Below are positions 27,750 through 62,653 of a DNA stretch of 64,000 nucleotides, one piece after another. The stretch spans positions 23,932,001-23,996,000 of the forward strand of contig OX597832.1 of assembly GCA_951406725.2 (NCBI GenBank). Direction: 5' to 3'. Positions within the stretch are counted from its first letter, which is position 1. The number at the start of each line of letters is the position of its first letter. The notes beneath the pieces were generated by a model that saw only the letters and a list, made by a program, of their open reading frames with translations, searched no databases and was not told the DNA's origin. The translations under genes and the position numbers were made by a program. This stretch comes from Octopus vulgaris (Eukaryota).

Positions 27750-28340
27750 ACTTATGAATCGTTTAATTTGACGTAGAATTTAATTATTGTTGAATATGCA
27801 TTTGAACACAGCAATAATAGAGCTGCCCGAAGGCATTTTAACATTAACGAAGCCAGTGCTGGAAATTGACATAAACAGTAGGACAAACTTTAAACTGTGC
27901 CTAGTAATAAACATGCCAATAAGGGTACATCCTCAAAATACCCCGAGTTAGAGATTGAACTTTATCACTGGATATGTGGCGAACACAATGAGGGTTTTGG
28001 TGTAAGCACCACCGAGATAAGATTAAGTGCTGGTCAGTTATTTAAGACCAAATGTGGAGCTGATAGTGTGGGCTTTAAAGCTTCGTTGAACAGGTGCTAT
28101 CATTTTATGAACCATTATGACTTAAGTGTACAACATAGAACAACAATTGTGCAAAGACTTCCTGAAGGTTATGAAGAAAATTTGACAAACTTTCAGAATC
28201 TTATTATCAAAGAAATGCAGAACGAACCCCGTTAACGTGTGATTTGCCGTATGACACAACAGTGACACATGTTAATGAAAAATCAGTTAAAATAAGAATT
28301 GGAAATGAAAAGAAAAAATTTACTGTGATGCTTGGGAAAT
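27750..28340 (+). mobile_element. pogo/Tigger (CENP-B HTH, POGK-like) transposase remnant
   Basis: KYPELEIELYHWI...VSTTEIRL...FKASLNRCYHFMNHYDLSVQHRTTIVQRLP. Confidence 0.78.
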
Positions 28341-28381
28341 GGAACAAAATTGGCACCATCTAAGGAAACAAAGTAGGTGTG

Positions 28382-30425
28382 GCATATTCATACAAGCATG
28401 CCCATTGCTTTAACATAAATAGTCTATTATATATCTATATAGGCATAAGTATGATATTTTGACTCTTTTTATCCAGAGTGTCCAAACAGGAGATTTGACT
28501 TTGAATATGGTAGATCTTGTTACCACAATCGAACTATATGGTTAGGGGAAAGTATAACTTTGATTCATATTATCCAAAGTGTCTTCAAATACGATAGATC
28601 CTGTTATCACCATGGAAACTATAAACTAAGACAAAATGGCAACCTATCAAATCATTTTTTCCGAATTGCAATGATGATGATTGTTCCTGAGAGGTAATGT
28701 TCTTTCGTAGATATAAGCTCAGCATATGAATATCGGTATGAACATTAACCAAAGAAGGCATGGACAAATTTATATTTCTTTGTGGAATCAAATGCAAAAT
28801 GTCTCTGTCTGATCTGTGGTGAAACAGTCGCAGTTCCAAAAGTTGAAAATGTGAAACGGCATTACACGTTAAAGCACACTTCGACCCATAATCGTTATGA
28901 AGGAGATCAAGTATTTTTACTTCAAAGGAATTTAGTCTCGCAACAGAATATTTTTGGGAAAATAGATGATGAAGTAAGTTTTGTCATTGCTGAAAAGATT
29001 GCACAAAACATGAAACCTTTTTCGGAAGGAGGCTTTATCAACAAATGTATCAGCTCGGCGATTGAAATTCTGTGCCCAGAGAAATAGAAAGCTATAAAAT
29101 GTGTTAGGTTGTCGCGTAATACAATAACCCGAAAGATTGAAGAACTGGCTGAAAATACGAAAATTCAGTTGAACAAACTGTAAAAACTTCAAAACTTACA
29201 GCATATTCATACAAATATGCCCATTGCTTTAACATAAATAGTCTATTATATATCTATATAGGCATAAGTATGATATTTTGACTCTTCTTATCCAGAGTGT
29301 CCAAACAGGAGATTTGACTTTGAATACGGTAGATCTTGTTACCACAATCAAACTATATGGTTAGGGGAAAATATAACTTCGATTCATATTATCCAAAGTG
29401 TCTAGGCCGAAGATTCGACTTCAAATACGATAGATCCTGTTATCACAATGGAAACTATAAACTAAGACAAAATGGCAACCTATCAAATCATTTTTTCCGA
29501 ATTGCAATGATGATGATTGTTCCTGAGAGGTAATGTTCTTTCGTAGATATAAGCTCAGCATATGAATATCGGTATGAACATTAACCAAAGAAGGCATGGA
29601 CAAATTTATATTTCTTTGTGGAATCAAATGCAAAATGTCTCTGTCTGATCTGTGGTGAAACAGTCGCAGTTCCAAAAGTTGAAAATGTGAAACGGCATTA
29701 CACGTTAAAGCACACTTCGACCCATAATCGTTATGAAGGAGATCAAGTATTTTTACTTCAAAGGAATTTAGTCTCGCAACAGAATATTTTTGGGAAAATA
29801 GATGATGAAGTAAGTTTTGTCATTGCTGAAAAGATTGCACAAAACATGAAACCTTTTTCGGAAGGAGGCTTTATCAACAAATGTATCAGCTCGGCGATTG
29901 AAATTCTGTGCCCAGAGAAATAGAAAGCTATAAAATGTGTTAGGTTGTCGCGTAATACAATAACCCGAAAGATTGAAGAACTGGCTGAAAATACGAAAAT
30001 TCAGTTGAACAAACTGTAAAAACTTCAAAACTTACAGCATATTCATACAAATATGCCCATTGCTTTAACATAAATAGTCTATTATATATCTATATAGGCA
30101 TAAGTATGATATTTTGACTCTTCTTATCCAGAGTGTCCAAACAGGAGATTTGACTTTGAATACGGTAGATCTTGTTACCACAATCAAACTATATGGTTAG
30201 GGAAAATATAACTTCGATTCATATTATCCAAAGTGTCTAGGCCGAAGATTCGACTTCAAATACGATAGATCCTGTTATCACAATGGAAACTATAAACTAA
30301 GACAAAATGGCAACCTATCAAATCATTTTTTCCGAAATGCAATGATGATGATTGTTCCTGAGTGGTAATGTTCTTTCGTAGATAAGCTCAGCATATGAAT
30401 ATCGGTATGAACATTAACCAAAGAA
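28382..30425 (+). repeat. ~836-bp tandem duplication (2.5 copies) of satellite monomers plus an hAT fragment
   Basis: GCATATTCATACAA at 28382, 29201 and 30037; identical ORFs at 28782 and 29618. Confidence 0.9.
28757..29200 (+). mobile_element. hAT (SPIN/Charlie, GTF2IRD2-like) transposase fragment; second copy 29593-30036
   Basis: WTNLYFFVESNAKCLCLICGETVAVPKVENVKRHYTLKH (BED-like finger), KPFSEGGFINKC, LSRNTITR.IEEL. Confidence 0.8.
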
Positions 30426-30963
30426 GATTAGACGTCATCAATAGATTCTCTGAGAACTTATTTGGCATGAAAGAGCAGTTACATCACTTTCAAATTGCAC
30501 CTAGCATCAATAGAGAAAGGACACATCAAATAATGTCCTTCTGCATTTGGCTGTCCATATGAACAGCTCAGGGAATTGGTGCTACACATGCTCTACAGAG
30601 GCCAGTGTAACGTCAGCATCTGTGGGAGTCCTGTGAAAAGTTACACAGGTGGAACTTGGCATCCCTCAAATCTTGGCTGGTAACCATGTTAGAGATGGCA
30701 TTATATTTGGGGTGACTCTTAACATGAAAATCTCAAAACATCCTCAAGGTGAAAAGCCTGTACAAAATCCTTCTCATTCTTTGCAATAATGATAACTAAT
30801 ACCAACGCAAATAACAGCATCAATAGGAGGACCTGACCTCCATGTCCAAAATGCTGGATCTCCTGCACCCAACAGGGGCCCCTCAGAGAGCAATGGATTG
30901 GAAGATCAAACTCCATCTGGTCGTGGTCCTTTTACTAGTAAAAATACACAACATGCTTTATAC

Positions 30964-31745
30964 CAGTGCTGCCCAACGTCCGGGCTGGATCCAGCCCACG
31001 AAGCCTTAGAATATGGCCCGCTAGTCGGTCTTCAATTTATGGGTATCTGCAAAACAAATTACAAAAAATCACATTAAAGTATCCCCTTTATGTCAAGGAA
31101 GTGTGCTACACGCAGGTCTTCTCCATACGTCATTATGAGACGTGATTTATCTGCGACAGAGATAGTTTTAAGCATGCTGAGTCAGCTGCTGACCATGTTG
31201 TGGACGAATACCAATTTTCCGTGGCTGAAAACTGTAAAGTCAAGCCAGCAGCCAATCACATCGCTCAATCAATGGGGAAAATCACCGCCTAAGAATTTCA
31301 TTAGATTTTGTGCTTGAAGACCGATTCTCGGTGGATGAATGAATAATTCTATAAAACTGGCATTTAAGGTGATTTAATTTCAAATTTACTCAGGCACAAC
31401 TTTTGATATGGACACCTTCTTATACTGATGAGCAAATTACAGTAGTTTCTTTTCCACAATAAATTTCAAATTTTGTTCATCCAAGGAATTTAGTCTCGCA
31501 ACAGAATATTTTTTTGGAAAATAGATGATAAAGTAAGTTTTGTCATTGCTGAAGAGATTGCACGAAACCTTTTTCGGAAGGAGGCTTTATCAACAAATGA
31601 ATCAGCTCGGCGATTGAATTTCTGGGTCAGAGAAAGAGAAAGCTATAAAATGTGTTAGGTTGTCGCGTAATACAATAACCCGAAGGATTGAAGAACTGGC
31701 TGAAAATATGAAAATTCAGTTGAACGAACTCTGTAAAAACTGCCA
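30964..31745 (+). mobile_element. hAT left end plus a third transposase fragment
   Basis: CAGTGCTGCCCAAC terminus with GGCCC subterminal motifs; 31485-31740 repeats the hAT coding piece. Confidence 0.6.
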
Positions 31746-31758
31746 GAATATAACAGTA

Positions 31759-32183
31759 AATTTCGCTGACACCCTGCATCAGAAAAAAGAAATTATAAAG
31801 TTCACAAATGAAGAGTTAATAGAAACGAGAGCACTCTTCACAACCTCAGGACAGGATCTGGTATTAGATACACCACAACAGATTAAGGAAGCAATAGAAA
31901 ACAAAACGATTATATATAAAATTACACTGGGGTCCCCAGTTTAATACAGTGGTGGTCCACTTCCCTAACCAGGAAGTGGCAAAAGCTCACTCTACGGAGT
32001 CTTTGCAAAATGATGAAATCATCATGATCCCATATCACAAAGGCCAGAGAGTGAGTAAAATTAGCATTAAAAATGTACCACCTGAGATACCTGAGCGATT
32101 TGTTACCATTTGAAAACTATAAATATTTTAGAGATTGCCGTATACAAAAACGACAATTGGGGTGGTAAATCGATAGAAATCGC
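31759..32183 (+). mobile_element. Tx1/L1-type ORF1 module, copy 1 (deleted)
   Basis: Homologous to 32985-33415. Confidence 0.7.
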
Positions 32184-32189
32184 CTGTTT

Positions 32190-33620
32190 TATTGTTTATT
32201 GTAAAAGTTTTGTTTCAAATTTTCGCACACGACGTGTGTAAGAAACCCAGCTTTCGTCTGGGTGTGTTTTCCGAGGGGGAATTTGCCCCTAGGGGCAATT
32301 TCAGCCCAGTTTTCATATCAAAATTTTTGCTTCTCCCTATTTTTTACATGTTTCGTCTAATGTATAAGCGGTCACTCTTCACAACTTCTGGACAAAATCT
32401 GATACTGCACACACCACAACATGTGGCTTTTTGTTTACATTTTTTTGCTTTCGAAGTTTTGAAGCGCCCAACTTTTGTTTGGGTATTTCTAAGTGTGGAA
32501 TTCGACCCTAGGGGCATTTTCTTCACCTTTTTAATATTAAATTTTATTTCTCGATACTAAAAATGTCGAGAAATTTGATTGTTGAGCAGTGGTCAACACT
32601 ATTCTCTGACGAAGATTTTCCCAGCCTAGGAATGACAGAAAGAAGAAGACATGAATTGCTGGATAACGTAAAGTCGAAAACAAGGTTTGAAAAAGAAATT
32701 GCTGTCGACCACAAAGATATTTCCACAACTCTTGATAGCCCTGTCATCACCAACACCACCAAAACTACCACCTCCACTGCCACAACAATCATTAACAACA
32801 ACAACAACATCAGTGATATTGATATAAATGTGCCTGCTATTTCGCAAGATTTGAATATCTCACCTATTACTGGTGAATATTAATAAAACAAAATTAACGT
32901 TCCCTGGAAATGCTACCAACACTACACCAACTAACACTAATATTTTGCTGCGGTAACAACAACAGTTAGAAGAGACCTTCTGTTAATTTCGCTGACACCC
33001 TGCATCAGAAAAAAGAAATTATAAAGTTCACAAATGAAGAGTTAATAGAAACGAGAGCACTCTTCACAACCTCAGGACAGGATCTGGTATTGCATACACC
33101 ACAACACAATGAAACAAAAGCAAACACACGATTATATATAAAATTATACTGGGGTCCCCAGTTTAATACAGTGGTGGTCCACTTCCCTAACCAGGAAGTG
33201 GCAAAAGCTCACTCTACAGAGACTTTACAAAATGATGAAATCATCATGATTCCGTATTACAAAGGACAAAGAGTGAGCAAAATTAGAATTAAAAATGTCC
33301 CAACAGATATACCACCCAAATGGATAACATCGGCGATATGTTATCACCTAAACACAATAAACATATTGGAAATCGCCATTGTTAAAAACGATAATTGGAG
33401 TGGTAAATCGATAAAGGTGACCCTTCAAATCGATGGGTCCTCTATCGAGAACTTACCCAATATCATATACTTGGAAAATGGGCAAAGCCTATATGTTGTA
33501 GTAGAAGGTAAAAAAACCACGATGTTACAGCTGTGGCAGCCCAGACCACTTAATCGCAAAGTGCGTTTTGACACATAATAAAACCAGAACAGTTACAAGC
33601 AAAACATAATGAAAATAGAA
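32190..33620 (+). mobile_element. Tx1/L1-type LINE 5' UTR plus ORF1 (gag-like, CCHC knuckle), copy 2
   Basis: ATG at 32563, Thr/Asn-rich linker, KIRIKNVP, VVVEGKK.RCYSCGSPDHLIAKC (frameshifted). Confidence 0.72.
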
Positions 33621-34904
33621 GAGTCCATAAACTATGAAAATATTTACGCCGCACGGATTTTGCAAATACCTAAATAACAACAAAGAAATCAGATGGGTAG
33701 TATGCGCGGATAAACTTGAAACAGACCAACAAAAAGCAATGCTTAAACAGCTAACGTGCAAAGATATAAACACAGAAGTCTTACCCTCGGCTGAAAACTC
33801 TGATAACGAGTCCATCAGCAAAACGAACACAGTCAGAGGGAACAAGTATGACTTTGTGAAAAAAATCATGAAAAAGTGTAATCCAACAGACATGGGTGAC
33901 ATTATAAGATTTTGTAAAAACACACCGAAAACAACTTACAGAAATAACTGGAGCAACATTTATAGAAATACACCAAATATAACGACAATCATTAATGCAG
34001 CTGCTACGGAAACCAACATCGAGACTCTAAGTACTCCCATATGGGAACAGATTAGAGATAAAAAGCAGTTCTTCTCTTACAATACAAATAACTACCACAG
34101 TGTACAAACATCGTTGGACATATACGAATGATGGCTGAAACACCACAATAAAGATGCAGACGATTTCGGCAGGCATACGTTCGAAGTTTGTCATAAGATC
34201 AACCCAAAAATTAACGGGTTGCATTTGACAGGGGCGAGTAACTCCGGTAAAAGTTATGTACTAAGAAGCATACGTAACAGACACATGAAATGCAGACGAA
34301 TGCGCTGTCAAGCGACAGACAACTTCACCTTCGGGTCATGCGTAGACAAAACACTCATATACACCGACGAAATGTGGTTTACCACAAACAACGTCGAGGA
34401 AGCAAAATGCATACTAGAAGGCACTGACACTTATATCAACATAAAACATCAGGCCGAAAGAGTTTTGAAACGTACACCTTCTCTCTTCACTTCAAATCAA
34501 GACCCATGGAGGGTCGTGCTACAAGAAGAACAGGTGCTGAAAAACCGGCTGTTTATCTACGAAACACAGAAGCATGCCGCAACTTAAAGATTGGGGAAAA
34601 GTAGAACTCAATCCGCTAATGTGGCTTACGATATGGAAAAACTACATTGAGAAATACGTCACAAACACATACAGTCAAATGTGTATAGAGAAAAACAAAC
34701 CCAAACCATCAAACCGCTTCAACACAAACGACATTGATCACCTTTCGCCAAACAAAAAGAGAACATTATACGCCATAAAAAGAAAACTAGAAAACGTATT
34801 AGACTCACCAGCAAAACGACCATGCGTACTAGACCCGACAATAGCAGCACAAGCATGCCTCTACCACAGCAACATTAGTGACGCCTGCTACTTCGCTGGT
34901 GACG
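33621..34904 (+). pseudogene. Endogenous parvoviral element: NS1 (SF3 helicase) pseudogene
   Basis: Frame 33634-34587 with one TGA (34129-34131). Walker A KINGLHLTGASNSGKS, Walker B LIYTDE, B' EEAKCILEG..INIKH, motif C FTSN, LKNR; a frameshifted tail contains LNPLMW. Confidence 0.85.
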
Positions 34905-35369
34905 AATACAGTGGTGGTCCACTTCCATAATCAGGAAGAAGCAAAAGACCACTCGACAGAAAATTTACAAAACGATGAACTAATAATGATTCCTTATTAC
35001 AGAAACCAAAAGAATCAGTAAAATTAAAATAAAAAATGTACCACCGGAGATACCTAACAAATGGATAACAGGAGCGATATGTTACCATTTGAAAACGATA
35101 AACATATTAGAGATTGCCGTATACAAAAACGACAATTGGGGTGGTAAATCGATAGAAGTCAGCATCCAGATTGATGGGTCCTCTATAGAGAAACTTCCTG
35201 ATAAGATTCTTTTAGAGAATGGGCAAAGACTATATGTGGTAGCAGAAGGGAAAAAGCCAAGATGCTACAACTGTGGAAGCCCAGAACTTTTAATCGCAAA
35301 GTGCGTTTTGGCACATAAAAAAACAAGAACAGTTACAAACAAAACACAAAACAAATAGAAAACAACCTT
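34905..35369 (+). mobile_element. ORF1 module, copy 3
   Basis: VVAEGKKPRCYNCGSPELLIAKCVLAHKKTRTVTNKTQNK*. Confidence 0.75.
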
Positions 35370-35400
35370 TGCTACCAACACCACCAAACCCACAACAGAT

Positions 35401-36660
35401 GCGTGACGGCATATGCGGACGATGTCACCATCATAGTGTCGAGCGTAAAGCACATCGTGATGCTAGGCGAGACACTAAAAGAATACGAAACGGTGACGGG
35501 AGCGAAAATTAACCCAAAGAAGTCAGTGTTTTTGCTACTCGGCACCTGGAGAAGCAAGCCCTTACTGTCCAACAGCAACTCAGTAGTGGGACGCTGGACG
35601 GACGGACCGGTTAAATTGCTCAGGGTCTGGTTCAGTCCAGACCGCCAAATGGATAAGAACTGGGACGAGATTGCGAGTAGAGTGGTCGCTCTCAGCCAAA
35701 CATGGGCCAAGGGAAAGCTGTCTCTAAAAGATCGGGTGGAGGTGGCTAATGCGTATATCGCATCCGTCATCGATTACCACCTGACTGTCGTGCCTTGTTC
35801 CGATGCTACCATCATGAAACTAGAACACATATTCTTCCACTTTCTGTGGAAGGGTGGCGTTCCGATGGTGAAGCGATCCATTTGCTGTCAACATACGTTA
35901 AATGGAGGACTGGGCATGCCATGGCTAATGATGCGCAGGCATGTGCCGAGACTGCGGCATCTCTAGAACTTCATTGACAACGGTGAACAGGTGTGGGCGT
36001 CGTTTGTGAGGCGCGCCTTCCCACAGCTTGTCTTACTGACCGAACTGCAAGCATGGATCAAAAAGAGACCGAAACTAGGCAATTGGCACCGAGAGTGTCA
36101 CCAAGCTCTACAGTAGTTCTGCTGTCCGGGATCAAATTTGTGGAACTTCCAAACGATCAAAGCGTTCTATAGAGGACTAGTGGAGGGGAGGTCCGACAAC
36201 ACACTCGGGGCAAATTCCTAACCCGCCTTTTCAGGACAACTTTCGGGCCGGGGCCTATGGATAACTTCCAGAGATCCCAGGCTTGGCAATGCTATCGGGA
36301 CGCACTACCAGTTCGAGAGAAGAGCTACAGACACGGTTCAAAAACCACCGGACCGACCTGCCCGAGATGCGGTCATAATGACGAAACCGTTCTGCACGCA
36401 CTCGTGCAGTGTCCAGATATTTCAGAGCTGTGGACCTTCGTCGAACAGCAGTTGTCGCGTGTAGGACGGGCCCGCTTATCGGCCGAGTCTATCGTGAATA
36501 TTGTTCCGCCACCTTCCTTTAAATGGGAAGCAAAAACAGTTTTCGTAACACTGGTAGCTATGGCAAAAGAATGCGTGTGGTGGCCACGTTTGAAAGGCTT
36601 ACAAACACATTCCTCTCTGGTCAGTCTCTCGTCAACTTTTTCAAGTACCACTTGAAAAGG
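35401..36660 (+). mobile_element. Tx1/L1-clade ORF2 fragment (RT C-half plus CCHC)
   Basis: TAYADDVT, GAKINPKKS, GGLG, CPRCGHNDETVLHALVQC; stops and frameshifts present. Confidence 0.88.
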
Positions 36661-37096
36661 AGGAAGTGGCAAAAGCTCACTCTACGGAGACTTTACAAAA
36701 TGATGAAATCATCATGGTACCATATTACAAAGGACAAAGAGTGAGCAAAATTAGAATTAAAAATGTCCCGACAGAAATAACACCCAAATGGATAACATCG
36801 ACGATATGTTACCATTTAAAAACGATAAATATATTAGAAATCGCCGTGTACAAAAATGACAATTGGGGTGGTAAAACAATAGAGGTTACCATCCAGATTG
36901 ATGGGTCCTCTATTGAGAACCTACCTGATAGGATTCACTTAGAAAATGGGCAAAGCCTATATGTTGTAGCAGAAAGGAAAAAGCCAAGATGCTACAACTG
37001 TGGCAGTCCAGAACATTTAATCGCAAAGTGCGTTTTGGCACATAAAAAAACAAGAACAGTTACAAGCGAAACACAAAACAAATAGAAAACAACCTT
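36661..37096 (+). mobile_element. ORF1 module, copy 4
   Basis: CYNCGSPEHLIAKC (CX2CX4HX4C) followed by TVTSETQNK*. Confidence 0.78.
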
Positions 37097-37119
37097 ATGC
37101 AACAACTAATTCATTTGGT

Positions 37120-37825
37120 TGTACAAATTGTTTGCACGGGAAACCTGCTCTGTGTGGTGGTTTTCCCGTTTTTGTATATGTTTTCGGCTTTTTTTAGCCA
37201 TTTTTGTTTTGACGATGGCGACTTCAAACCATGAAGTCGTCGTTGAAAAGAACGCTGGTCTCCTTGACAGCGCTTACGACGTTGATTTCCCTACACTGCC
37301 TTCACCACAGCTTCATGAAGAAGAGATGAAGGGGAGAAACAACACAGCTGCAAGTGTGAGCATGAACGCTAACATCGCCACCGACACACAAAAAATTGTA
37401 AACACACAGACAACAGCTTCACAGTCAACTACTGAATCAGACAACTCTGCCACCACCACCAACAACATCGTCATTTTGCCGTCTACCATAACTGCCAACA
37501 ACAACACCACTGCTACAACCTCAACTACTAGGGCTTTTCCAAGGGAGGAATTGGCCCCTAGGGGCAGTTTCAACCATAATTAAATTGTGTATTTTTCTTC
37601 TCGACATTAAAAATGTTGAGAAATTTTATTGTTGAATGCCGGTCAAACTCCTTCATGGACCAGCATTTTCCTAGACTTGAAACGCTACGAGAAAAAAAGA
37701 ACTTATGCACGCAAAGTGCAAACCTGAATGACGTGGTAGTGAACGCTGCAACCACTTGGCAAAAGAATGTGTATGGTGGACGTATCTGAAAGGCCTAGAC
37801 ACAAACTCTTTACACTCTGGTCAAC
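37120..37825 (+). mobile_element. Mosaic of LINE 5' UTR/ORF1 starts and a short ORF2 3' piece
   Basis: MATSNHEVVVEK..DFPTLP start; 37545-37690 resembles 32270-32640; 37755-37825 resembles 36560-36625. Confidence 0.55.
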
Positions 37826-37827
37826 TC

Positions 37828-38410
37828 CTGCTATGTGTTGCGCAAATGGAAAAAGTGAACCCCACACCGCTGGATGATCCACCACAGCTGTAGAGGCACA
37901 ACTATAGAGTCGAAACATTTCCTCAATAACATCTGAAAGTACAGTTGTGCATTAGAAATGACATCTTTCGGCGCTAATACTGTTCAAGAAGGCGGGTTTG
38001 TGTCTGCTTTCAAAGTGCAGGAACAGATTCACCATAGGATAGGATCACTCAAACCTGCTGAAAATCAAGATCCCCAATTCTTTCAACTGTACTTTGTGGG
38101 CAATTTACATGAACAAGCCACCCTACGAAACTCCATTTCAACTGGCACTAACTTTCACCCGACAATGCAACTACAAGAACTTTTGCACCAGAAAAACAGC
38201 TCTGTATGCAGCTTCAAGTATGCCTTTGATACAGAAGCTTGGTCAAATTTTAATGTTATCATTAATGCTCAGAAAAGATCATCTAGGGAACATACAGGCC
38301 GCTACTATGCACCCACATGCAATACAATAGCTGTACTCCTTCGCAGTGGACAGCACAATCCCAGAGACATTGTCTTTAGACGACGTGACACCACCCTTCG
38401 ACACGTCATA
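37828..38410 (+). mobile_element. Helitron Rep/Hel N-terminal fragment
   Basis: MCCANGK, MTSFGA...FKVQEQIHHRIGSLKP...PQFFQLYF, RYYAPT, RDIV motifs typical of Helitron helicase-like proteins. Confidence 0.82.
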
Positions 38411-38585
38411 CATGAGTCTTTGTTCGAGGACTTGTCGAAATTTCACCCCACAAACAGCCGAAAAAACAAAGATGACCGTTTAAGGTAGGTGATGTCTCGA
38501 ATTCATGTAGGGTGCACAAATGTGCGTGGCCAATCGTCGAACTGGAAGCAAGGGCGCTTCCTAAATGCCATCAGGTCACGGGATT
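38411..38585 (+). mobile_element. Tx1-type ORF1 end and ORF2 endonuclease start
   Basis: ...KDDRLR* followed by MSRIHVGCTNVRGQSSNWKQGRFLNAIRS (APE domain I, NVRG motif). Confidence 0.7.
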
Positions 38586-41500
38586 TGACTTTGAATCTAA
38601 CAGATCTTGTTACCACAATGGTCTCAGAAGATTCTACTTTGAACGGGAAAGAACCTTTACCACAATGGCAATAAGTATGTTGGTTATCAGACATACATTT
38701 CTACTCTTTTTCTCCAAAGTGTGATGATGATTTTTACTAAATTCATCATCATCTTCAGTGGATAAGTTCAGCGTATGAACATTAGTACGAGCATTAACCA
38801 ATGGTAATAATCACATGCTGGAAGCAAGGAATTCCTATCCACTTTTTTTCATCCTAAATATCTTGACAAAAGAATAAAGTATAAATATGATAAATCTTAC
38901 CATAATGGCAACTGTAAAGTAAGGCATAGTGGTAACATATCCACTCTTTTCATCCAAAAAGTGATGATGATGATTGTTGCTGAGTTGTAATCTTCTATCG
39001 ATATAACCAAAAAGGTACTGAAGTGCCTTTTAACAAGACTTTGAGTCTGGAGCAGGGACATCCATTCTTTTCATCCGAAGCATCCTGCCAGAAGATTTGA
39101 CTCGTGACATAAAGGATCTTCTTACCAAAATGGCAAAAGTTATGAAGTTGGGCACAAGGGAAACATTTTCCACTTTTTTTTTCATCTGAAGAGTCTCAAC
39201 AGAAGGTACGACTTGTAATATGATAAGTTTTATTACAACAACAGCATGTGAAAGTTCTTGTTACCACAATTGCAATAATTGTGAAATTAGACACACCGGT
39301 AACATTTGCATGTTTTTTCCGAGTGTTTATTAACAAATGATTCTGCTTGGAACATTATACAGGTAACTTTTGCACTCTCTTTACCTGAAGTAGGACGGTG
39401 ATTGTTGCTCACCTGTATTCTTCTTTCGTGGATAAGCTCAGCATATGAACAATAGTACGAACATTAACCAAAGGTTACATCTGACCAACAGATTCTCTGA
39501 GAACTCAGAATATCTTTCAAGTCGCACCTAACATCTACAAAAAAGGACACATTAGATGGCGTTCTGTATTTGGATGTCCGTATGAACATCTCAGGGAATT
39601 GGCGACATCCATGCCCTGCATAGGTCAGTGAAATTTCAGCATCTGTGGGAGACTTGTAGCAAGTTATACAGGGCGCCGAATGGAGCACAAGACTAGACTC
39701 CACCCGGTCACGGTCCTTTTACTGGTCAAAATACACAAAATGCTCGGAAGTGCAAGTGGTCAGTCAATATAAACAAAAACACATTTAAGTGCCATTTAAC
39801 GTGACTCACTCAAGTCAGGAGAAACAGACATCAGAATGTTTATTTCTGATAGAAATAGATATCAGAAAGTTGTTGCTATCATAATGGCAATAATTATGCA
39901 ACTAGGCATACGGATAACATTTCACCTTTTATTATCCAAAGGGTCTCAGAAGATTCTACTTTGAACAAGAAAGAACCTTTACCACAATGGCAATCAGTTT
40001 ATTGGTTATACGGCCACAGTTCTCTTTTTGTCCAAAAGCAATTATAAAGTGACACAAAGTGGAAACGTTTCCACTCTTTTTATCCAAAGAATTTGTTACA
40101 ACAAAAGCAATTATAAAGTTACACATAATGGGAACAATTCTACTCTTTTCATCCAAAGTGCCTTGACAGAAGATTCCACTTTGAATATAATAGATCCTGT
40201 TGCCACAATGGCAATAGTTATCTAGTTAGGTATATGTGTAACGTTTCCACAAATAGGCCCATAGCTTTTTAATCAGTAATTCTATTATATACCTACATCA
40301 GCAAAAGTCTGATTATTTGAGTCTTTTTATCCAAAATGTCATAGACAGAAGATTCAACATTTAATACAATAGGTCTTCTTAACACAATGGCATGTGATAG
40401 GTGTTGCCATCATAATGGCAATAATTATGCAATTAGGCATACGGATAACATTTCAACATTTATTATCCAAAGGGTCTCAGAAGATTCTACTTTGAACAAG
40501 AAAGAACCTTTACCACAATGGCAATAAGTTTGTTGGTTATCTGAACATTTCTACTCTTTTTCTCCAAAGTGTGATGATGATTTTTACTAAATCATCATCA
40601 TCTTCAGTGGATAAGTTCAGCGTATGAACATTAGTACGAGCATTATCCAATGGTAATAATCACTTGCTGGGAGCAAGGGATTCCTATCCACTTTTTTTCA
40701 TCCTAAATATCTTGTCAAAAGAATAAAGTATAAATATGATGAATCTTACCATAATGGCAACTATGAAGTAAGGCATAGTGGTAACATATCCACTCTTTCA
40801 TCCAAAAAGTGATGATGATGATTGTTGCTGAGTTGTAATCTTCTGTCGATATAACCAAAAAGGTATTGCAGTGCCGTTTAACAAGACTTTGAGTCTGGAG
40901 CAGGGACATCCATTCTTTTCATCCGAAGCATCCTGCCAGAAGATTTGACTCGTGACATAAAGGATCTTCTTACCAAAATGGCAAAAGTTATGAAGTTGGG
41001 CACAAGGGAAACATTTTCCACTTTTATTTTTTACTTGAAGAGTCTCAACAGAAGGTACGACTTGTAATATGATAAGTTTTATTACAACAACAGCATGTGA
41101 AAGTTCTTGTTACCACAATTGCAATAATTGTGAAATTAGACACACCGGTAACATTTGCATGTTTTTTCCGAGTGTTTATTAACAAATGATTCTGCTTGGA
41201 ACATTATACAGGTAACTTTTGCACTCTCTTTACCTGAAGTATGACGGTGATTGCTGCTCACCTGTATTCTTCTTTCGTGGATAAGCTCAGCATATAAACA
41301 ATAGTACGAACATTAACCAAAGGTTACATCTGACCAACAGATTCTCTGAGAACTCAGAATATCTTTCAAGTCGCACCTAACATCCACAAAAAAGGACACA
41401 TTAGATGGCGTTCTGTATTTGGATGTCCGTATGAACATCTCAGGGAATTGGCGACATCCATGCCTTGCATAGGTCAGTGAAATTTCAGCATCTGTGGGAG

Positions 41501-44500
41501 ACTTGCAACAAGTTATACAGGGCGCCGAACGGAGCACTAGACTAGACTCCAGCCGGTCATGGTCCTTTTACTGGTCAAAATACACAAAATGCTCGGAAGT
41601 GCAAGTGGTCAGTCAATATAAACAAAAACACATTTAAGTGCCATTTAACGTGACTCACTCAAGTCAGGAGAAACAGACATCAGAATGTTTATTTCTGATA
41701 GAAATAGATATCAGAAAGTTGTTGCTATCATAATGGCAATAATTATGCAACTAGGCATACGGATAACATTTCACCTTTTATTATCCAAAGGGTCTCAGAA
41801 GATTCTACTTTGAACAAGAAAGAACCTTTACCACAATGGCAATCAGTTTATTGGTTATACGGCCACAGTTCTCTTTTTGTCCAAAAGCAATTATAAAGTG
41901 ACACAAAGTGGAAACGTTTCCATTCTTTTTATCCAAAGAATTTGTTACAACAAAAGCAATTATAAAGTTACACATAATGGGAACAATTCTACTCTTTTCA
42001 TCCAAAGTGCCTTGACAGAAGATTCCACTTTGAATATAATAGATCCTGTTGCCACAATGGCAATAGTTATCTAGTTAGGTATATGTGTAACGTTTCCACA
42101 AATAGGCCCATAGCTTTTTAATCAGTAATTCTATTATATACCTACATCAGCAAAAGTCTGATTATTTGAGTCTTTTTATCCAAAATGTCATAGACAGAAG
42201 ATTCAACATTTAATACAATAGGTCTTCTTAACACAATGGCATGTGATAGGTGTTGCCATCATAATGGCAATAATTATGCAATTAGGCATACGGATAACAT
42301 TTCAACATTTATTATCCAAAGGGTCTCAGAAGATTCTACTTTGAACAAGAAAGAACCTTTACCACAATGGCAATAAGTTTGTTGGTTATCTGAACATTTC
42401 TACTCTTTTTCTCCAAAGTGTGATGATGATTTTTACTAAATCATCATCATCTTCAGTGGATAAGTTCAGCGTATGAACATTAGTACGAGCATTATCCAAT
42501 GGTAATAATCACTTGCTGGGAGCAAGGGATTCCTATCCACTTTTTTTCATCCTAAATATCTTGTCAAAAGAATAAAGTATAAATATGATGAATCTTACCA
42601 TAATGGCAACTATGAAGTAAGGCATAGTGGTAACATATCCACTCTTTCATCCAAAAAGTGATGATGATGATTGTTGCTGAGTTGTAATCTTCTGTCGATA
42701 TAACCAAAAAGGTATTGAAGTGCCGTTTAACAAGACTTTGAGACTGGAGCAGGGACATCCATTCTTTTCATCCGAAGCATCCTGCCAGAAGATTTGACTC
42801 GTGACATAAAGGATCTTCTTACCAAAATGGCAAAAGTTATGAAGTTGGGCACAAGGGAAACATTTTCCACTTTTTTTTTTACCTGAAGAGTCTCAACAGA
42901 AGGTACGACTTGTAATATGATAAGTTTTATTACAACAACAGCATGTGAAAGTTCTTGTTACCACAATTGCAATAATTGTGAAATTAGACACACCGGTAAC
43001 ATTTGCATGTTTCTTCCGAGTGTTTCTCGACAAACGATTCTGCTTGGAACATTATACAGGTAACTTCTGCACTCTCTTTACATGAAGTATGACGGTGATT
43101 GTTGCTCACCTGTATTCTTCTTTCGTGGATAAGCTCAGCATATGAACAATAGTACAAACATTAACCAAAGATTACAACTGACCAACAGATTCTCTGAGAA
43201 CTCAGAATATCTTTCAAGTCGCACCTAACATCCACAAAAAAGGACACATTAGATGGCGTTCTGTATTTGGATGTCCATAAGAACATCTCAGGGAATTGGC
43301 GACATCCATGCCTTGCATAGGTCAGTGAAATTTCAGCATCTGTGGGAGACTTGCAACAAGTTATACAGGGCGCCGAACGGAGCACTAGACTAGACTCCAG
43401 CCGGTCATGGTCCTTTTACTGGTCAAAATACACAAAATGCTCGGAAGTGCAAGTGGTCAGTCAATATAAACAAAAACACATTTAAGTGCCATTTAACGTG
43501 ACTCACTCAAGTCAGGAGAAACAGACATCAGAATGTTTATTTCTGATAGAAATAGATATCAGAAAGTTGTTGCTATCATAATGGCAATAATTATGCAACT
43601 AGGCATACGGATAACATTTCACCTTTTATTATCCAAAGGGTCTCAGAAGATTCTACTTTGAACAAGAAAGAACCTTTACCACAATGGCAATCAGTTTATT
43701 GGTTATACGGCCACAGTTCTCTTTTTGTCCAAAAGCAATTATAAAGTGACACAAAGTGGAAACGTTTCCACTCTTTTTATCCAAAGAATTTGTTACAACA
43801 AAAGCAATTATAAAGTTACACATAATGGGAACAATTCTACTCTTTTCATCCAAAGTGCCTTGACAGAAGATTCCACTTTGAATATAATAGATCCTGTTGC
43901 CACAATGGCAATAGTTATCTAGTTAGGTATATGTGTAACGTTTCCACAAATAGGCCCATAGCTTTTTAATCAGTAATTCTATTATATACCTACATCAGCA
44001 AAAGTCTGATTATTTGAGTCTTTTTATCCAAAATGTCATAGACAGAAGATTCAACATTTAATACAATAGGTCTTCTTAACACAATGGCATGTGATAGGTG
44101 TTGCCATCATAATGGCAATAATTATGCAATTAGGCATACGGATAACATTTCAACATTTATTATCCAAAGGGTCTCAGAAGATTCTACTTTGAACAAGAAA
44201 GAACCTTTACCACAATGGCAATAAGTTTGTTGGTTATCTGAACATTTCTACTCTTTTTCTCCAAAGTGTGATGATGATTTTTACTAAATCATCATCATCT
44301 TCAGTGGATAAGTTCAGCGTATGAACATTAGTACGAGCATTATCCAATGGTAATAATCACTTGCTGGGAGCAAGGGATTCCTATCCACTTTTTTTCATCC
44401 TAAATATCTTGTCAAAAGAATAAAGTATAAATATGATGAATCTTACCATAATGGCAACTATGAAGTAAGGCATAGTGGTAACATATCCACTCTTTCATCC

Positions 44501-47252
44501 AAAAAGTGATGATGATGATTGTTGCTGAGTTGTAATCTTCTGTCGATATAACCAAAAAGGTATTGCAGTGCCGTTTAACAAGACTTTGAGTCTGGAGCAG
44601 GGACATCCATTCTTTTCATCCGAAGCATCCTGCCAGAAGATTTGACTCGTGACATAAAGGATCTTCTTACCAAAATGGCAAAAGTTATGAAGTTGGGCAC
44701 AAGGGAAACATTTTCCACTTTTATTTTTTACTTGAAGAGTCTCAACAGAAGGTACGACTTGTAATATGATAAGTTTTATTACAACAACAGCATGTGAAAG
44801 TTCTTGATACCACAATTGCAATAATTGTGAAATTAGACACACCGGTAACATTTGCATGTTTTTTCCGAGTGTTTATTAACAAATGATTCTGCTTGGAACA
44901 TTATACAGGTAACTTTTGCACTCTCTTTACCTGAAGTATGACGGTGATTGCTGCTCACCTGTATTCTTCTTTCGTGGATAAGCTCAGCATATAAACAATA
45001 GTACGAACATTAACCAAAGGTTACATCTGACCTACAGATTCTCTGAGAACTCAGAATATCTTTCAAGTCGCACCTAACATCTACAAAAAAGGACACATTA
45101 GATGGCGTTCTGTATTTGGATGTCCGTATGAACATCTCAGGGAATTGGCGACATCCATGCCTTGCATAGGTCAGTGAAATTTCAGCATCTGTGGGAGACT
45201 TGCAACAAGTTATACAGGGCGCCGAACGGAGCACTAGACTAGACTCCAGCCGGTCATGGTCCTTTTACTGGTCAAAATACACAAAATGCTCGGAAGTGCA
45301 AGTGGTCAGTCAATATAAACAAAAACACATTTAAGTGCCATTTAACGTGACTCACTCAAGTCAGGAGAAACAGACATCAGAATGTTTATTTCTGATAGAA
45401 ATAGATATCAGAAAGTTGTTGCTATCATAATGGCAATAATTATGCAACTAGGCATACGGATAACATTTCACCTTTTATTATCCAAAGGGTCTCAGAAGAT
45501 TCTACTTTGAACAAGAAAGAACCTTTACCACAATGGCAATCAGTTTATTGGTTATACGGCCACAGTTCTCTTTTTGTCCAAAAGCAATTATAAAGTGACA
45601 CAAAGTGGAAACGTTTCCACTCTTTTTATCCAAAGAATTTGTTACAACAAAAGCAATTATAAAGTTACACATAATGGGAACAATTCTACTCTTTTCATCC
45701 TAAGTGCCTTGACAGAAGATTCCACTTTGAATATAATAGATCCTGTTGCCACAATGGCAATAGTTATCTAGTTAGGTATATGTGTAACGTTTCCACAAAT
45801 AGGCCCATAGCTTTTTAATCAGTAATTCTATTATATACCTACATCAGCAAAAGTCTGATTATTTGAGTCTTTTTATCCAAAATGTCATAGACAGAAGATT
45901 CAACATTTAATACAATAGGTCTTCTTAACACAATGGCATGTGATAGGTGTTGCCATCATAATGGCAATAATTATGCAATTAGGCATACGGATAACATTTC
46001 AACATTTATTATCCAAAGGGTCTCAGAAGATTCTACTTTGAACAAGAAAGAACCTTTACCACAATGGCAATAAGTTTGTTGGTTATCTGAACATTTCTAC
46101 TCTTTTTCTCCAAAGTGTGATGATGATTTTTACTAAATCATCATCATCTTCAGTGGATAAGTTCAGTGTATGAACATTAGTACGAGCATTATCCAATGGT
46201 AATAATCACTTGCTGGGAGCAAGGGATTCCTATCCACTTTTTTTCATCCTAAATATCTTGTCAAAAGAATAAAGTATAAATATGATGAATCTTACCATAA
46301 TGGCAACTATGAAGTAAGGCATAGTGGTAACATATCCACTCTTTCATCCAAAAAGTGATGATGATGATTGTTGCTGAGTTGTAATCTTCTGTCGATATAA
46401 CCAAAAAGGTATTGCAGTGCCGTTTAACAAGACTTTGAGTCTGGAGCAGGGACATCCATTCTTTTCATCCGAAGCATCCTGCCAGAAGATTTGACTCGTG
46501 ACATAAAGGATCTTCTTACCAAAATGGCAAAAGTTATGAAGTTGGGCACAAGGGAAACATTTTCCACTTTTATTTTTTACTTGAAGAGTCTCAACAGAAG
46601 GTACGACTTGTAATATGATAAGTTTTATTACAACAACAGCATGTGAAAGTTCTTGTTACCACAATTGCAATAATTGTGAAATTAGACACACCAGTAACAT
46701 TTGCATGTTTTTTCCGAGTGTTTATTAACAAATGATTCTGCTTGGAACATTATACAGGTAACTTTTGCACTCTCTTTACCTGAAGTATGACAGTGATTGC
46801 TGCTCACCTGTATTCTTCTTTCGTGGATAAGCTCAGCATATGAACAATAGTACGAACATTAACCAAAGATTACAACTGACCAACAGATTCTCTGAGAACT
46901 CAGAATATCTTTCAAGTCGCACCTAACATCTACAAAAAAGGACACATTAGATGGCGTTCTGTATTTGGATGTCCGTATGAACATCTCAGGGAATTGGTGA
47001 CATCCATGCCCTGCATAGGTCAGTGAAATTTCAGCATCTGTGGGAGACTTGTAGCAAGTTATACAGGGCGCCGAATGGAGCACAAGACTAGACTCCACCC
47101 GGTCACGGTCCTTTTACTGGTCTAAATACACAAAATGCTTGGAAATGCAATGGTCAGTCAATATAAACAAAAACACATTTAAGTGCCATTTAACGTGACT
47201 CACTCACAGTCAGGAGAAACAGACATCAGAATGTTTATTCCTGATAGAAATA

Positions 47253-48851
47253 CTGTGGGGGACAAAAGAGTTTGCAGACCTATTTTTTCTCAATTTCTTT
47301 ATTAATTTTGCTTTATTTTTTAGTTTCACCTCTTCCATCATTTGCTGGTTGCCATTCTGTTTTTTCATTACTACATTTTACGAAAAAACCCAGAATTTAA
47401 TAATTGTTAAACATTTTCCTCTTTTCAGGTGAGCCAAAAGTTTATGCAGGTAACATAAATTTATTAATAATGGCTAAAGGAAAGATATTGACAGATAGCG
47501 AGAAGGGTGAAGTTGTTAAATTACTTGCTGCAAAGAAGTCTACATTAGAAATTTCAAAAATTTTGAAACGAGATCATTGAACTGCGAAACGTTTCGTCAT
47601 TGACGGCAATGATGGAAGAAAAAAGCACAAAAGTGGCAGAGCAAAGGTGACTTCACCACGAGATTTGAGAAAAATCAAGAGGAGTGTGCTATTAAACCCA
47701 CACAGCACAAGCAAAGCTATTTTCGACCATGCAGGAGTGTCTGACATCTCTAAAAGGACCCGAAATCGGATTTTGAAACAAATAGCCGACCAGAGAACAC
47801 TGACAAAACGTCCTCCTTTGAGTGATATCAACTCTCAGAAGCGACTAGCATGGGCCACTAAATATTTGAAAACCAATTTTCAAAATGTTCTCTGGACTGA
47901 CGAGGCTAGAGCAACCCTCGACGGTCCCGATGGTTGGACCAAGGGATGGCTTCTTAAAGGCAATAGCCCACGCTTGCGATTCAGATGTCAACAGGGAGGA
48001 GGGAGAGTGATGATTTGGGCTGGGATTATTGGAAGTGAGATTGTTGGTCCTTTTCTTGTCCCTGAAGGTGTCAAAATGAATTCTGTGAACTACTGCGAGT
48101 TTTTGGAAGAGAATTTATTGCCCTGGTTGAATTCACAAAATGATGCTGTCAACCAGAATCTCATTATTCAACAAGACAATGCCCCAAGCCATGCTTCTCG
48201 GTTCACAAAAGCTTGGCTTTCAGAGCAGGGGATCTCTGGTGAACGTCTGATGGACTGGCCACCACAGAGCCCGGATTTGAATCCGATAGAGAACCTCTGG
48301 TCGATTCTGAAGAGGACGGTTTACGAAAACGGGCATCAATTCAACAGTAAAAAAGACATTTGGGAGAGGATCAAGGAAGTATCTTCTGAAATCACACCTC
48401 AACAAGTGCATAAATTAACATCCTCTGTTGATAGGAGGCTGATGGATTTGATTAAGAATGGAGGAAAGCGTATCAAGGGTTAAATTGTTTTATAAATTTG
48501 TATTGTTTTGTTAATTGTTATTTGAGCAATAACTGTTGATTTCTTGTAATATGTTATCAATATATGGTACGATTATCATAATAACACAATGTTTCAAATT
48601 ATATTATGTTTAAAAATGTTATTTATTTCGAATAAATGAGTCTTGCAAACTCTTTTGGCCCATATTTCTTTCGCAAATTTTTTTTAAATCCATATTTTCC
48701 CTCCAGAATATGATTATTTGGTTTCCGTCTCTAGGAATTTACTTTATATATTTGCATATCGAACAATGAGTAACATAGTTATTATATTGGAAAATATTGA
48801 AGCATAAATTTATCAATATATACAATTTGCAAACACTTTTGACCCCCACAG
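47253..48851 (+). mobile_element. Full-length Tc1-family DD37E (TRT-like) transposon, 1599 bp
   Basis: TIRs CTGTGGGGGACAAAAGAGTTTGCA / TGCAAACACTTTTGACCCCCACAG; TA on the left, AA on the right; inner repeats near 47430 and 48645. Confidence 0.92.
47470..48483 (+). pseudogene. DD37E transposase, 337 codons with a single premature stop
   Basis: MAKGKILTDSEK...RDH*T (TGA 47578-47580), WTDEARATLDGPDGW, QQDNA, SPDLNPIE; 37 residues between the second D and E. Confidence 0.9.
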
Positions 48852-51800
48852 AAGATATCAGAAAGTTGTTGCTATCATAATGGCAATAATTATGCAATTA
48901 GGCATACGGATAACATTTCAACTGTTATTATCCAAAGGGTCTCAGAAGATTCTACTTTGAACGAGAAATAACCTTTACCACAATGGCAACAAGTCTGTTG
49001 GTTATCGCCAGTATCGTTTCTACTCTTTTTCTCCAAAGTGTGATGATGATTGTTACTAAATCATCATCATCTTCAGTGGATAAGTTCAGCGTATGAACAT
49101 TAGTACGAGCATTACCCAAACCAAATCACAAGTTAGTAATGAATTCTGTGAGAATCTACTGGGTATGAAAGAAAGAGCAGTTAAATCTCTTTCAAATCGC
49201 ACATGACACCTAAAAGGAAGGACATAGCAGATAACGTCATTCTGTATGCAGCTGTTCATGTGAACAACTATGGAAATTGGTGTCACCCATGCTCTACTTA
49301 GACCAGTGAAACCTCTGCATCTGTGGGAGTCCTGAGGTAAATTACACAGGCAGAAATTTGCATCCCTAATCCATGGCCGGTCACCATGTTAGGGCTTGTA
49401 CTGCATCTGGGGTGAGCCACCTGATGGCAGAGCAAGTAACTCTGAGGTTCCCCACTTAGTCCTTTCTCCTTATCATTGTGACAGAAGCATGCAAGGACGT
49501 GACCTCCTTGGCTCTTACATAAACGCATACAAAAACCTAAAACACATTGAGCAGCTTTGTACAGTGTTCTTTCTTCAAATGACAACTATTACAACTTTCT
49601 GAATGGAGTTGTTATTGGATGGTTTCACCACGTGAGACTACAACCATCTGTGAAAGGCATTACACCATTTCCTCACTCCTGGATGTCGGAGACAACAGAT
49701 CTCCTACACCCAACAATGAGGCAGGAAGGCAATGTAGTGACAGATCAAACTCCACCAGGTTTTGGTCCTTTTACTGGTTATGATACACAACATGCTCACA
49801 AATGTAAGTGGCCTATCGATATAAACAAAAAGGCAATTCAGTGCCATTTAACAAGAGGAGAGTGTGGAGCAATAGACATCAGAAGTTTGAAGGTGGTAGA
49901 ACTTGTTACAACAAAAGCAATTACAAAGTGACACAAAGTGGAAACGTTTCCACTCTTTTTATCCAAAGAATTTGTTACAACAAAAGCAATTATAAAGTTA
50001 CACATAATGGGAACAATTCTACTCTTTTCATCCAAAGTGCCTTGACAGAAGATTCCACTTTGAATATAATAGATCCTGTTGCCACAATGGCAATAGTTAT
50101 CTAGCTAGGTATATGTGTAACGTTTCCACAAATAGGCCCATAGCTTTTTAATCAGTAATTCTATTATATACCTACATCAGCAAAAGTCTGATTATTTGAG
50201 TCTTTTTATCCAAAATATCTTAGACAGAAGATTCAACATTTAATACAATAGGTCTTCTTAGCACAAAGGCATGTGATAGGTGTTGCCATCATAATGGCAA
50301 TAATTATGCAATTAGGTATACGGATAACATTTCAACTGTTATTATCCAAAGGGTCTCAGAAGATTCTATTTTGAACGAGAAAGAACCTTTACCACAATGG
50401 CAATAGGTTTGTTGGTTATCTGAACATTTCTACTCTTTTTCTCCAAAGTGTGATGATGATTGTTACTAAATCATCATCATCTTCAGTGGATAAGCTCCGC
50501 CTATGAACATTAGTACGAGCATTATCCAATGGTAATAATCACATGCCGGGAGCAAGGGATTCCTATCCACTTTTTTTCATCCTAAATATCTTGACAAAAG
50601 AATAAAGTATAAATATGATAAATCTTACCATAATGGCAACTGTGAGGTAAGGCATAGTGGTAACATATCCACTCTTTTCATCCAAAAAGTGATGATGATG
50701 ATGCTGAGTTGTAATCTGTCGATATAACCAAAAAGGTATTGCAGTGCCGTTTAACAAGACTTTGAGTCTGGAGCAGGGACATCCATTCTTTTCATCCGAA
50801 GCATCCTGCCAGAAGATTTGACTCGTGACATAAAGGATCTTCTTACCAAAATGGCAAAAGTTATGAAGTTGGGCACAAGGGAAACATTTTCCACTTTTTT
50901 TTTACCTGATGAGTCTCGACAGAAGGTACGACTTGTAATATGATAAGTTTTATTACAACAACAGCATGTGAAAGTTCTTGTTACCACAATTGCAATAATT
51001 GTGAAATTAGTCACACCGGTAACATTAGCATGTTTTTTCCGAGTGTTTATTAACAAATGATTCTGCTTGGAACATTATACAGGTAACTTTTGCACTCTCT
51101 TTACCTGAAGTATGACGGTGATTGTTGCTCACCTGTATTCTTCTTTCGTGGATAAGCTCAGCATATGAACAATAGTACGAACATTAACCAAAGATTACAA
51201 CTGACCAACAGATTCTCTGAGCACTCAGAATATCTTTCAAGTCGCACCTAACATCTACAAAAAAGGACACATTAGATGGCGTTCTGTATTTGGATGTCCG
51301 TATGAACATCTCAGGGAATTGGCGACATCCATGCCCTGCATAGGTCAGTGAAATTTCAGCATCTCTGGGAGACTTGCAGCAAGTTATACAGGGCGCCGAA
51401 TGGAGCACAAGACTAGACTCCACCCGGTCACGGTCCTTTTACTGGCAATAATTATGCAATTAGGCATATGGATAACATTTCAACTTTAATTATCCAAAGG
51501 GTCTCAGAAGATTCTACTTTGAATGAGAAAGAACCTTTCCCACAATGGCAATTAGAAAGTTAGTTCTACGGGAAACATTTCTACTCTTTTTGTCCAAAGT
51601 GTAATGATGTTTTTTATGGCAATAGTTAACATTTCAACATTTATTATCCAAAGGGTCTCAGGAGATTCTACTTTGAACGAGAAATAACCTTTACCACAAT
51701 GGCAACAAGTCTGTTGGTTATCGCCAGTATCGTTTCTACTCTTTTTCTCCAAAGTGTGATGATGATTGTTACTAAATCATCATCATCTTCAGTGGATAAG

Positions 51801-52869
51801 TTCAGCGTATGAACATTAGTACGAGCATTACCCACACCAAATCACAAGTTAGTACTGAATTCTCTGGGAATCCACTGGGCATGAAAGAAAGAGCAGTTAA
51901 ATCTCTTTCAAATCGCATATGACATCTAAAAGGAAGGACATAGCAGATAATATCATTCTGTAAGCAGCTGTTCATGTGAACAGCTATGGAAATTGGTGCC
52001 ACCCATGGCCTCCATCGGCCAGTGTAACCTCTGAGTCTGTGGGAGTTTCTTGCAAGTTACACAGGCGGAACTTGGTGTCCCTAATCCTTGCCTAGTCACC
52101 ATGTTAGGGCTTGCATTGTATTTGGGGTTACACTTTACATGAAAATCTCCATTAAGCACACTCAAGGTGCAAGGCCTGTAGAAGATGATTCTTATTTGTT
52201 ACAATAATGATTAGAAATACCACCCCAAATAACAGCATGAAAGATACGACACTGTCCCATCACCCCTGGATATCTGAGACAATATATCTCTTGCACCCAA
52301 CAGAGGCCCCTCAGAGGGCAACGGATAGCAAGACCAAACTTCATCCATATACACAAAAAACAAAAAAAAAATGTGCCATAAACAAGCCTCACAACCTGGA
52401 GAAATAGACTTCAGAAATCTGAACACGATGGATCTTGTTACAACAATGGCAATAATTATGAAGTTGGGCACATGAAGAACATTTCCACTTCTTTTCTCTA
52501 AAATGTCTCCAGAGAAGACATTTAGATGCTCTTATATGACAGACCTTGTTATCGCAAAAGGCAACTATAAAATAACACAAAATGGAAACCTGTCCACTCT
52601 TTCTCTCCGAAATGTCTAGACAGAAGGTTTTCCCTTTGAATATGATAGATCTTTTATCACAATGGCAATTATAAAGTTGCACATACAGGTAACATTTTCA
52701 CTGTCTTAATCTAAAGTGCGGTGATCATCATCATCGTCTTCTTCAGTGGATAAGCTCAGAATATAAGCATTAGTATGAACATTAACCAAAGAAGATTACA
52801 AGTGAGCAATGGGTTCTTTGAGAACTCATTTGGCATGAAAGAAAGAGCAGTTAAATCTCTTTCAAATTG

Positions 52870-55250: not shown

Positions 55251-55254
55251 CTCG

Positions 55255-56135: not shown

Positions 56136-56164
56136 GGACTATATATATATATATATATATATAG

Positions 56165-56197
<33 letters not shown>

Positions 56198-62603: not shown

Positions 62604-62653
62604 CTGTAAGGCAATACATAACAATAGAGTGAATATAAATACAATTACATATA

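Follow-up and report, generated by a model that had tools for sequence, protein, structure and literature searches.

We conclude with good confidence that the parvoviral sequence at 33621..34904 (+ strand) of the window, the 64,000-nucleotide stretch of Octopus vulgaris DNA analysed here, is a dead, 5′-truncated NS1 fossil within a likely piRNA-source tract, and that its source virus likely carried the capsid gene (VP) ahead of NS1. The fragment is NS1, its reading frame is broken, it is flanked by host DNA, and many related copies lie elsewhere in the genome. Parvoviral fossils are common in invertebrates, and the NS1 fragment alone is ordinary; cephalopod pieces of its lineage have been in print since 2016. 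The present data tie this unplaced lineage firmly to the cephalopod germline and supply its capsid gene. New relative to the literature that we found are the suggested VP-first order and the virus-bearing one-strand tracts.

A broken NS1 gene

The sequence-only reading had described about 320 codons in a single frame interrupted by one TGA, and translation agreed, giving 318 residues at 33631-34587 with that stop only (34129-34131, + strand). All of the SF3 motifs quoted at the time are present in this frame, with Walker A, B, B′ and C located in the helicase at ~34200-34570 (+). The second half of the frame matches the Pfam family Parvo_NS1 (E 8.3e-17, 61.5 bits against a cut-off of 20). Whether the best match might instead be a non-parvoviral SF3 helicase was checked. 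Among 177,635 solved sequences the best match of the window NS1 is AAV Rep, and the 11 matches at E <=1 all belong either to AAV Rep or to some other parvoviral NS1; a family profile run against solved sequences reached AAV Rep at 8e-14 and papillomavirus E1 at only 0.59. The papillomavirus family PPV_E1_C also scored below its own Pfam cut-off on the window frame, and a non-parvoviral identity was rejected on these grounds. A protein language model likewise returned NS1 clusters as the look-alikes of the lineage NS1 (score 0.97).

When aligned with P0002, a database relative of 514 amino acids, the window copy is 71% identical over residues 127-438; its frame then changes at ~34565-34572 (+), beyond which the match continues at 64%. 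The frameshifted tail, which had also been noticed earlier, matches relatives to ~34904, and the fragment as a whole corresponds to a full-length relative from residue ~127 almost to its C-terminus. The helicase had been called nearly intact. It is there, but the gene is less intact than this suggests: its 5′ end is cut, with the first ~126 residues gone, and with them the HxH motif that is present by eye in P0002, P0043 and P0012; the stop and the frameshift interrupt what remains; and, again by eye, 4 of the 38 columns invariant among 12 database relatives have changed, three of them just after Walker A. The window fragment cannot encode a working NS1. The N-terminal part of NS1 in the relatives gave no match in a Pfam scan, and its predicted fold was too poor to use (mean pLDDT 37.8). 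The internal TGA had been read as a possible transition from CGA, a proposal without support from the relatives, as 0 of 14 carry Arg in that column. The observed/expected ratio of CpG is 1.02 in the fragment, compared with 0.61 over the window's first 26 kb, which suggests that the insert is probably fairly young.

A lineage already known from squid and cuttlefish

In a large protein collection this NS1 has 14 close relatives (61-82% identity), every one of them from a Logan assembly. A profile run against 1.84 billion representatives returned 1,412 matches, with a sharp fall past the close-relative group. A FastTree tree was built from 131 helicase rows, comprising the 120 of 161 database proteins that were long enough and 11 of 17 genome copies, six short ones being excluded. 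Nine genome copies and 13 database proteins form a clade with a support of 0.988 and a stem of 0.65; deeper nodes are weak. In this tree, made of database proteins and genome copies without classified references, the helicase clade thus appears to stand alone on a long stem. Among 20 outside proteins that were looked up, a virus name was attached to two, both unclassified bird-swab parvoviruses.

The lineage itself is not new: squid and cuttlefish ESTs belonging to it appeared in 2016 without being assigned to a genus. The available text of Francois et al. 2016 (PMC5013282) names the Euprymna scolopes ESTs DW277466, DW283133 and DW277051 and the Sepia officinalis EST FO193416, and has mollusc sequences, these included, branching outside all known genera. 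By eye, a Euprymna EST and the window frame have 27 of 44 residues in common at the helicase end; the EST is of the same lineage, and the ESTs of both animals bear out the cephalopod host proposed from the window sequence. That text, however, gives short NS pieces only, for which contamination was possible there, and provides no capsid, gene order or chromosomal setting. No other paper on cephalopod parvoviruses or endogenous viral elements was found in the literature covered, which included the available parts of PMC11357303, PMC6950620, PMC9707805 and PMC9896142. A search for a free virus genome of the lineage in IMG/VR and JGI metagenomes gave no confirmed match.

The kinship to invertebrate denso- or hamaparvoviruses that the sequence-only reading had proposed is not supported, since the clade is alone in the tree and the VP1 of the lineage has a PLA2. 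The available text of PMC9896142 describes hamaviruses as having a VP1 without PLA2; the PLA2 in the lineage VP1 therefore argues against membership of the Hamavirinae (formerly Hamaparvovirinae). With the Parvovirinae and Densovirinae the lineage shares an NS1 with an SF3 helicase, preceded in full-length relatives by a putative HUH domain, as well as a VP1 with PLA2. It differs from them in that a long stem (support 0.99) leads to its helicase clade, which has no virus-named member, and in that its fossils have VP ahead of NS1 where the usual order is NS, then VP.

The capsid gene and its position

Parvoviridae have genomes made of linear single-stranded DNA, 4-6 kb long, with hairpin ends, and a VP1 that carries PLA2 in most members. 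The earlier remark that no capsid gene or terminal hairpins are evident is correct for the window locus, where we found no capsid match, no notable inverted repeat and no terminal hairpins, but a capsid gene of the lineage is present elsewhere in the genome. A broken frame with a PLA2-like motif adjoins the NS1 copy at C20:32.07M, and VP pieces at C18 and C4 pass the cut-off of PF08398. P0198, a database relative of 608 amino acids, aligns with the C18 copy from one end to the other at 47% and resembles parvoviral VP1 clusters in the protein language model (0.94). When a VP profile was compared with the PDB, AAV VP1 came first (3e-4); single VP pieces had no match there. A structure model of VP was too poor to assess a jelly-roll capsid fold (mean pLDDT 37.5), and a scan of the genome with Pfam Parvo_coat, which matched nothing, is uninformative because its control matched nowhere either. 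Judged by these sequence comparisons, the lineage has in this genome a VP1 capsid gene predicted to bear PLA2, which is absent from the window.

P0198 (for VP) and P0002 (for NS1) were then mapped onto 23 loci and the window. Four independent loci hold both genes, and in all four the two share a strand, with VP as the upstream gene: C18:6.79M, C20:32.07M, C20:34.47/34.49M (a duplicated event, counted once) and C14:54.54M, where the two genes span ~3.6 kb. A TATA box is found 41-47 bases upstream of the VP start in each of the three copies that keep that start. The usual order of a one-strand parvovirus being NS, then VP, these arrangements lead us to favour, with some reserve, a source virus that carried VP ahead of NS1 on the same strand; four rearranged fossils underlie this order, the scans of IMG/VR and JGI having turned up no confirmed free genome of the lineage.

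The same loci could also derive from an ordinary NS1-then-VP virus whose head-to-tail concatemers, or circles, were integrated across the genome ends. Parvovirus replication produces concatemers, the VP/NS1 junction is affected by deletions at two of the four loci, and an AATAAA follows the apparent end of VP at C14:54.54M. Integration of this kind is nevertheless less likely in light of the remaining copies: none of the seven loci that keep the NS1 tail runs on into VP, NS1 coding sequence never precedes a VP start, and the two loci that retain the intergenic gap have only ~130 bases (C14:54.54M) and ~170 bases (C18, with a 450-base host repeat set aside) between the genes. In addition, no hairpin with z below -2 was found in 28 windows at C18, and the sole hairpin detected lies upstream, ahead of the VP TATA box at C18 (z -3.65, chosen after the scan). 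Five other candidate loci had no hairpin below z -2, making one positive locus in six, and a GC-rich stretch behind NS1 at C20:32.07M folds like its shuffles (z 0.18). The VP-first order, which we continue to prefer, was stated by no paper found in a search with subscription journals and bioRxiv supplements outside its scope, and it is directly checkable on public contigs.

According to the available text of PMC13426907, the Swazi bat-associated megaparvovirus lineage has a PLA2 frame upstream of NS1 and its capsid gene after NS1. A PLA2-bearing frame thus precedes NS1 in both lineages; however, the frame of the bat virus is separate, whereas the upstream frame in octopus matches a 608-amino-acid VP1-like protein along its length.

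Two further features of these loci were recorded. At a fifth place, C1:137.49M (L145), VP-like pieces lie upstream of NS1 on the same strand, this NS1 having been found with a query from a second NS1 lineage (described below) at 45% identity. At C18:6.79M, a direct repeat of ~300 bases, 89% identical, flanks the insert of VP and the start of NS1 (L091:2951-3273 and 6092-6385).

Many copies and probable repeated integration

In a genome of 2.8 Gb, the window corresponds to 23.93-24.00 Mb of a contig 71.8 Mb long, and its NS1 lies at 23.97 Mb. Two protein searches of the genome placed the NS1 lineage, window included, in at least 16 places on 10 contigs; three further matches belong to the second parvovirus lineage. 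Most of these copies carry stops or frameshifts; they are 65-80% identical among themselves, and no flanks are common to any. Host flanks, decay and a chromosomal place, by which an endogenous viral element is recognised, are all present, and the many broken copies on 10 contigs confirm the germline integration that had been proposed. An assembly artefact or contaminating virus sequence is scarcely credible for a fragment that lies deep inside a 71.8-Mb contig, is broken by a stop and a frameshift, and is related to decayed copies spread over 10 contigs.

The number of copies could instead suggest that a mobile element carries the helicase as cargo, or that the helicase is a gene domesticated by the host, as could the related frames in many Logan contigs (one cluster has 34 members) and the derivation of one copy, at C3:182.28M, from the C14 copy, which indicates some copying within the genome. 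This reading is largely refuted and we consider it very improbable, given that the NS1 copies have no common flanks, that the window frame is broken and lacks its start, and that a capsid gene goes with the lineage.

The closest long copy, at C14:64.33M, differs from the window copy with a pS of 0.76 and a pN of 0.12 over 147 codons. Such values suggest divergence under selection, as between two viruses, and hence independent integrations. Because the two closest long copies differ in the manner of two virus strains, an unclassified, cephalopod-associated parvovirus lineage has very probably infected the germline repeatedly.

The copy at C3:182.28M (L065:5383-5600) is 218 bases long and has the 5′ start of the C14 NS1 copy, which its two pieces match at 98-100% identity; ~200 bases are missing between the pieces. 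This near-identity indicates recent copying inside the genome. Splicing was rejected as the origin of the two-piece structure, since neither strand shows GT-AG ends at the missing part.

A second, unrelated parvovirus-like NS1 lineage was also encountered, at C9:9.515M (L066:4941-5936), C29:19.15M (L068:4935-5711) and about eight further places, without common flanks. The C9:9.515M copy is a 332-amino-acid open frame directly before a CR1-type endonuclease and reverse transcriptase. By eye, this lineage matches Octopus bimaculoides KOF81493 and KOF62817, which appear in the available supplement of PMC5013282.

LINE flanks and the route of capture

As the sequence-only reading had stated, NS1 is fused between two LINE ORF1 modules, and both neighbours proved to be pieces of one LINE family. 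This family is abundant (303 candidates in the genome), measures ~5.5 kb and encodes an endonuclease and a reverse transcriptase (RT) in ORF2; from its layout we label it L1/Tx1-like. To the left, a LINE 5′ region with an ORF1 piece (32178..33620, +; internal deletion near 33145) joins NS1 at 33620/33621. To the right, a second ORF1 module (34905..35400, +) starts abruptly in mid-ORF1; the two flanks are 82% alike and are therefore pieces of different LINE copies. At this identity, a target-site duplication or a single interrupted element was ruled out as the source of the flanks. The right module is joined, across a deletion of ~2.9 kb of the element, to the 3′ part of ORF2 (35401..36664, +; RT end and zf-RVT), which in turn has 4 bases in common with a further ORF1 module carrying a zinc knuckle (36661..37096, +) at their junction. 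Another ORF1 module (31735..32181, +) shares its internal deletion with the left flank. Altogether, four ORF1 modules that are 82-90% alike and one ORF2 end lie in the window, all on the + strand and with abrupt joins.

Viral and transposon pieces would have been joined by illegitimate recombination or by template jumps of RT, and capture of the window copy through RNA, as suggested by the sequence-only reading, has, in our estimate, a little less than an even chance. A specific form of it, in which a LINE RT switched template from LINE RNA to viral mRNA, then returned to LINE RNA, and the chimera was inserted in one event, is possible though somewhat less probable. NS1 and all LINE pieces do lie on one strand and are joined without spacers, 4 bases are shared at one LINE-LINE junction, and of the 16 transposon pieces that lie no more than 1.5 kb from 20 viral loci, 12 are co-oriented with the virus. 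Against a single chimeric insertion, neither the poly(A) tail nor the target-site duplication that would mark a LINE-made processed copy was found at the window NS1, and the four similar ORF1 modules, two with a common deletion, suggest an older local duplication. Moreover, scraps of DNA transposons are co-oriented as well; the neighbours of other NS1 copies are RTE, CR1, Gypsy, piggyBac or Helitron pieces and not this LINE; and the TATA box kept in three sister copies points to a DNA source. The common strand of all pieces fits template switching and selection for antisense piRNAs equally. Elsewhere, copies of the flanking LINE (L069, L070, L072, L074, L078 and L079) often stand head to tail with related LINEs, which may reflect targeted insertion.

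A one-strand tract with the layout of a piRNA cluster

The NS1 fragment lies in a tract of transposon scraps on one strand (27894..57897, +) that comprises pogo, two hAT/SPIN, LINE, Helitron, two Tc1, Penelope-like and RTE elements. All nine transposon blocks are on the + strand, as is NS1 (two-sided chance 0.004 if the blocks are independent), and such dense transposon fragments on one strand are the layout expected of a one-strand piRNA cluster; the two transposon blocks of the window outside the tract are on the minus strand. A comparable tract lies at C14:64,320,000-64,345,000 (L054, L055 and L097), with NS1 pieces of two parvovirus lineages, ankyrin-repeat frames and a piece of a CRESS Viral_Rep (E 9e-23). 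At C14:64.32-64.35M all 12 pieces, whether transposon or Rep, are on the viral (+) strand. Across 20 viral loci, 26 of 34 transposon pieces share the strand of the virus and 8 are opposite; as a control, 40 random 10-kb stretches had 2 pairs of different classes on the same strand and 8 on opposite strands. The query library of this strand test was partly drawn from viral loci, while the Pfam scans covered both strands, and every piece of the tract was still + when the test was repeated without queries derived from the window. The AT skew of the tract (0.10) lends weak support, given that 6 of the 40 control stretches reach 0.09 or more.

These data incline us slightly towards a window tract that acts as a piRNA source, with antisense piRNAs made from its minus strand; the NS1 fragment would have been retained in the tract, and transcription of the minus strand would yield piRNAs antisense to the virus. 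In Aedes aegypti, endogenous viral elements interspersed with one-way transposon fragments yield antisense piRNAs, as described in the available text of 10.1101/127498. The arrangement there is similar, with several virus families amid one-way transposon fragments in both animals. In contrast, the mosquito clusters as given in that text hold mostly RNA-virus elements and LTR elements, and their piRNAs were sequenced, whereas the octopus tracts, which are candidates by their DNA layout, have pieces of ssDNA viruses beside scraps of LINEs and DNA transposons. No paper with both piRNA clusters and cephalopods in its title or abstract was found.

We tentatively suggest a wider picture, in which cephalopods would host a parvovirus lineage of subfamily rank. 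In its one-strand genome the capsid gene, with its PLA2, would come first, driven by a TATA promoter of its own by the genome end, and NS1 would come second; octopus tracts resembling piRNA clusters would archive, as an antiviral record, pieces of this lineage, of the second parvovirus lineage and of a CRESS virus. There are now two candidate piRNA loci with pieces of three ssDNA-virus lineages in a cephalopod, and with them a single small-RNA library could test whether molluscs have an antiviral memory based on piRNAs.

Several other features of the window were observed. Host exons bracket the tract, NGP1NT (nucleolar GTPase) at 6192-7091 (+) and PIP49_C (FAM69 kinase) at 62361-62741 (-). A tandem array of ~5 copies of a 1,849-base unit, 96-100% identical, occupies 38617-47206, and an 836-base tandem lies at 28.4-30.4 kb; by eye, their + strand translations look like degenerate, intron-free scraps of Ig-repeat or ankyrin-like sequence, with no Pfam match. 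At 47581-48480 (+) is an open frame of 300 amino acids for a Tc1-like transposase, 93% identical to a copy beside the viral piece on C29.
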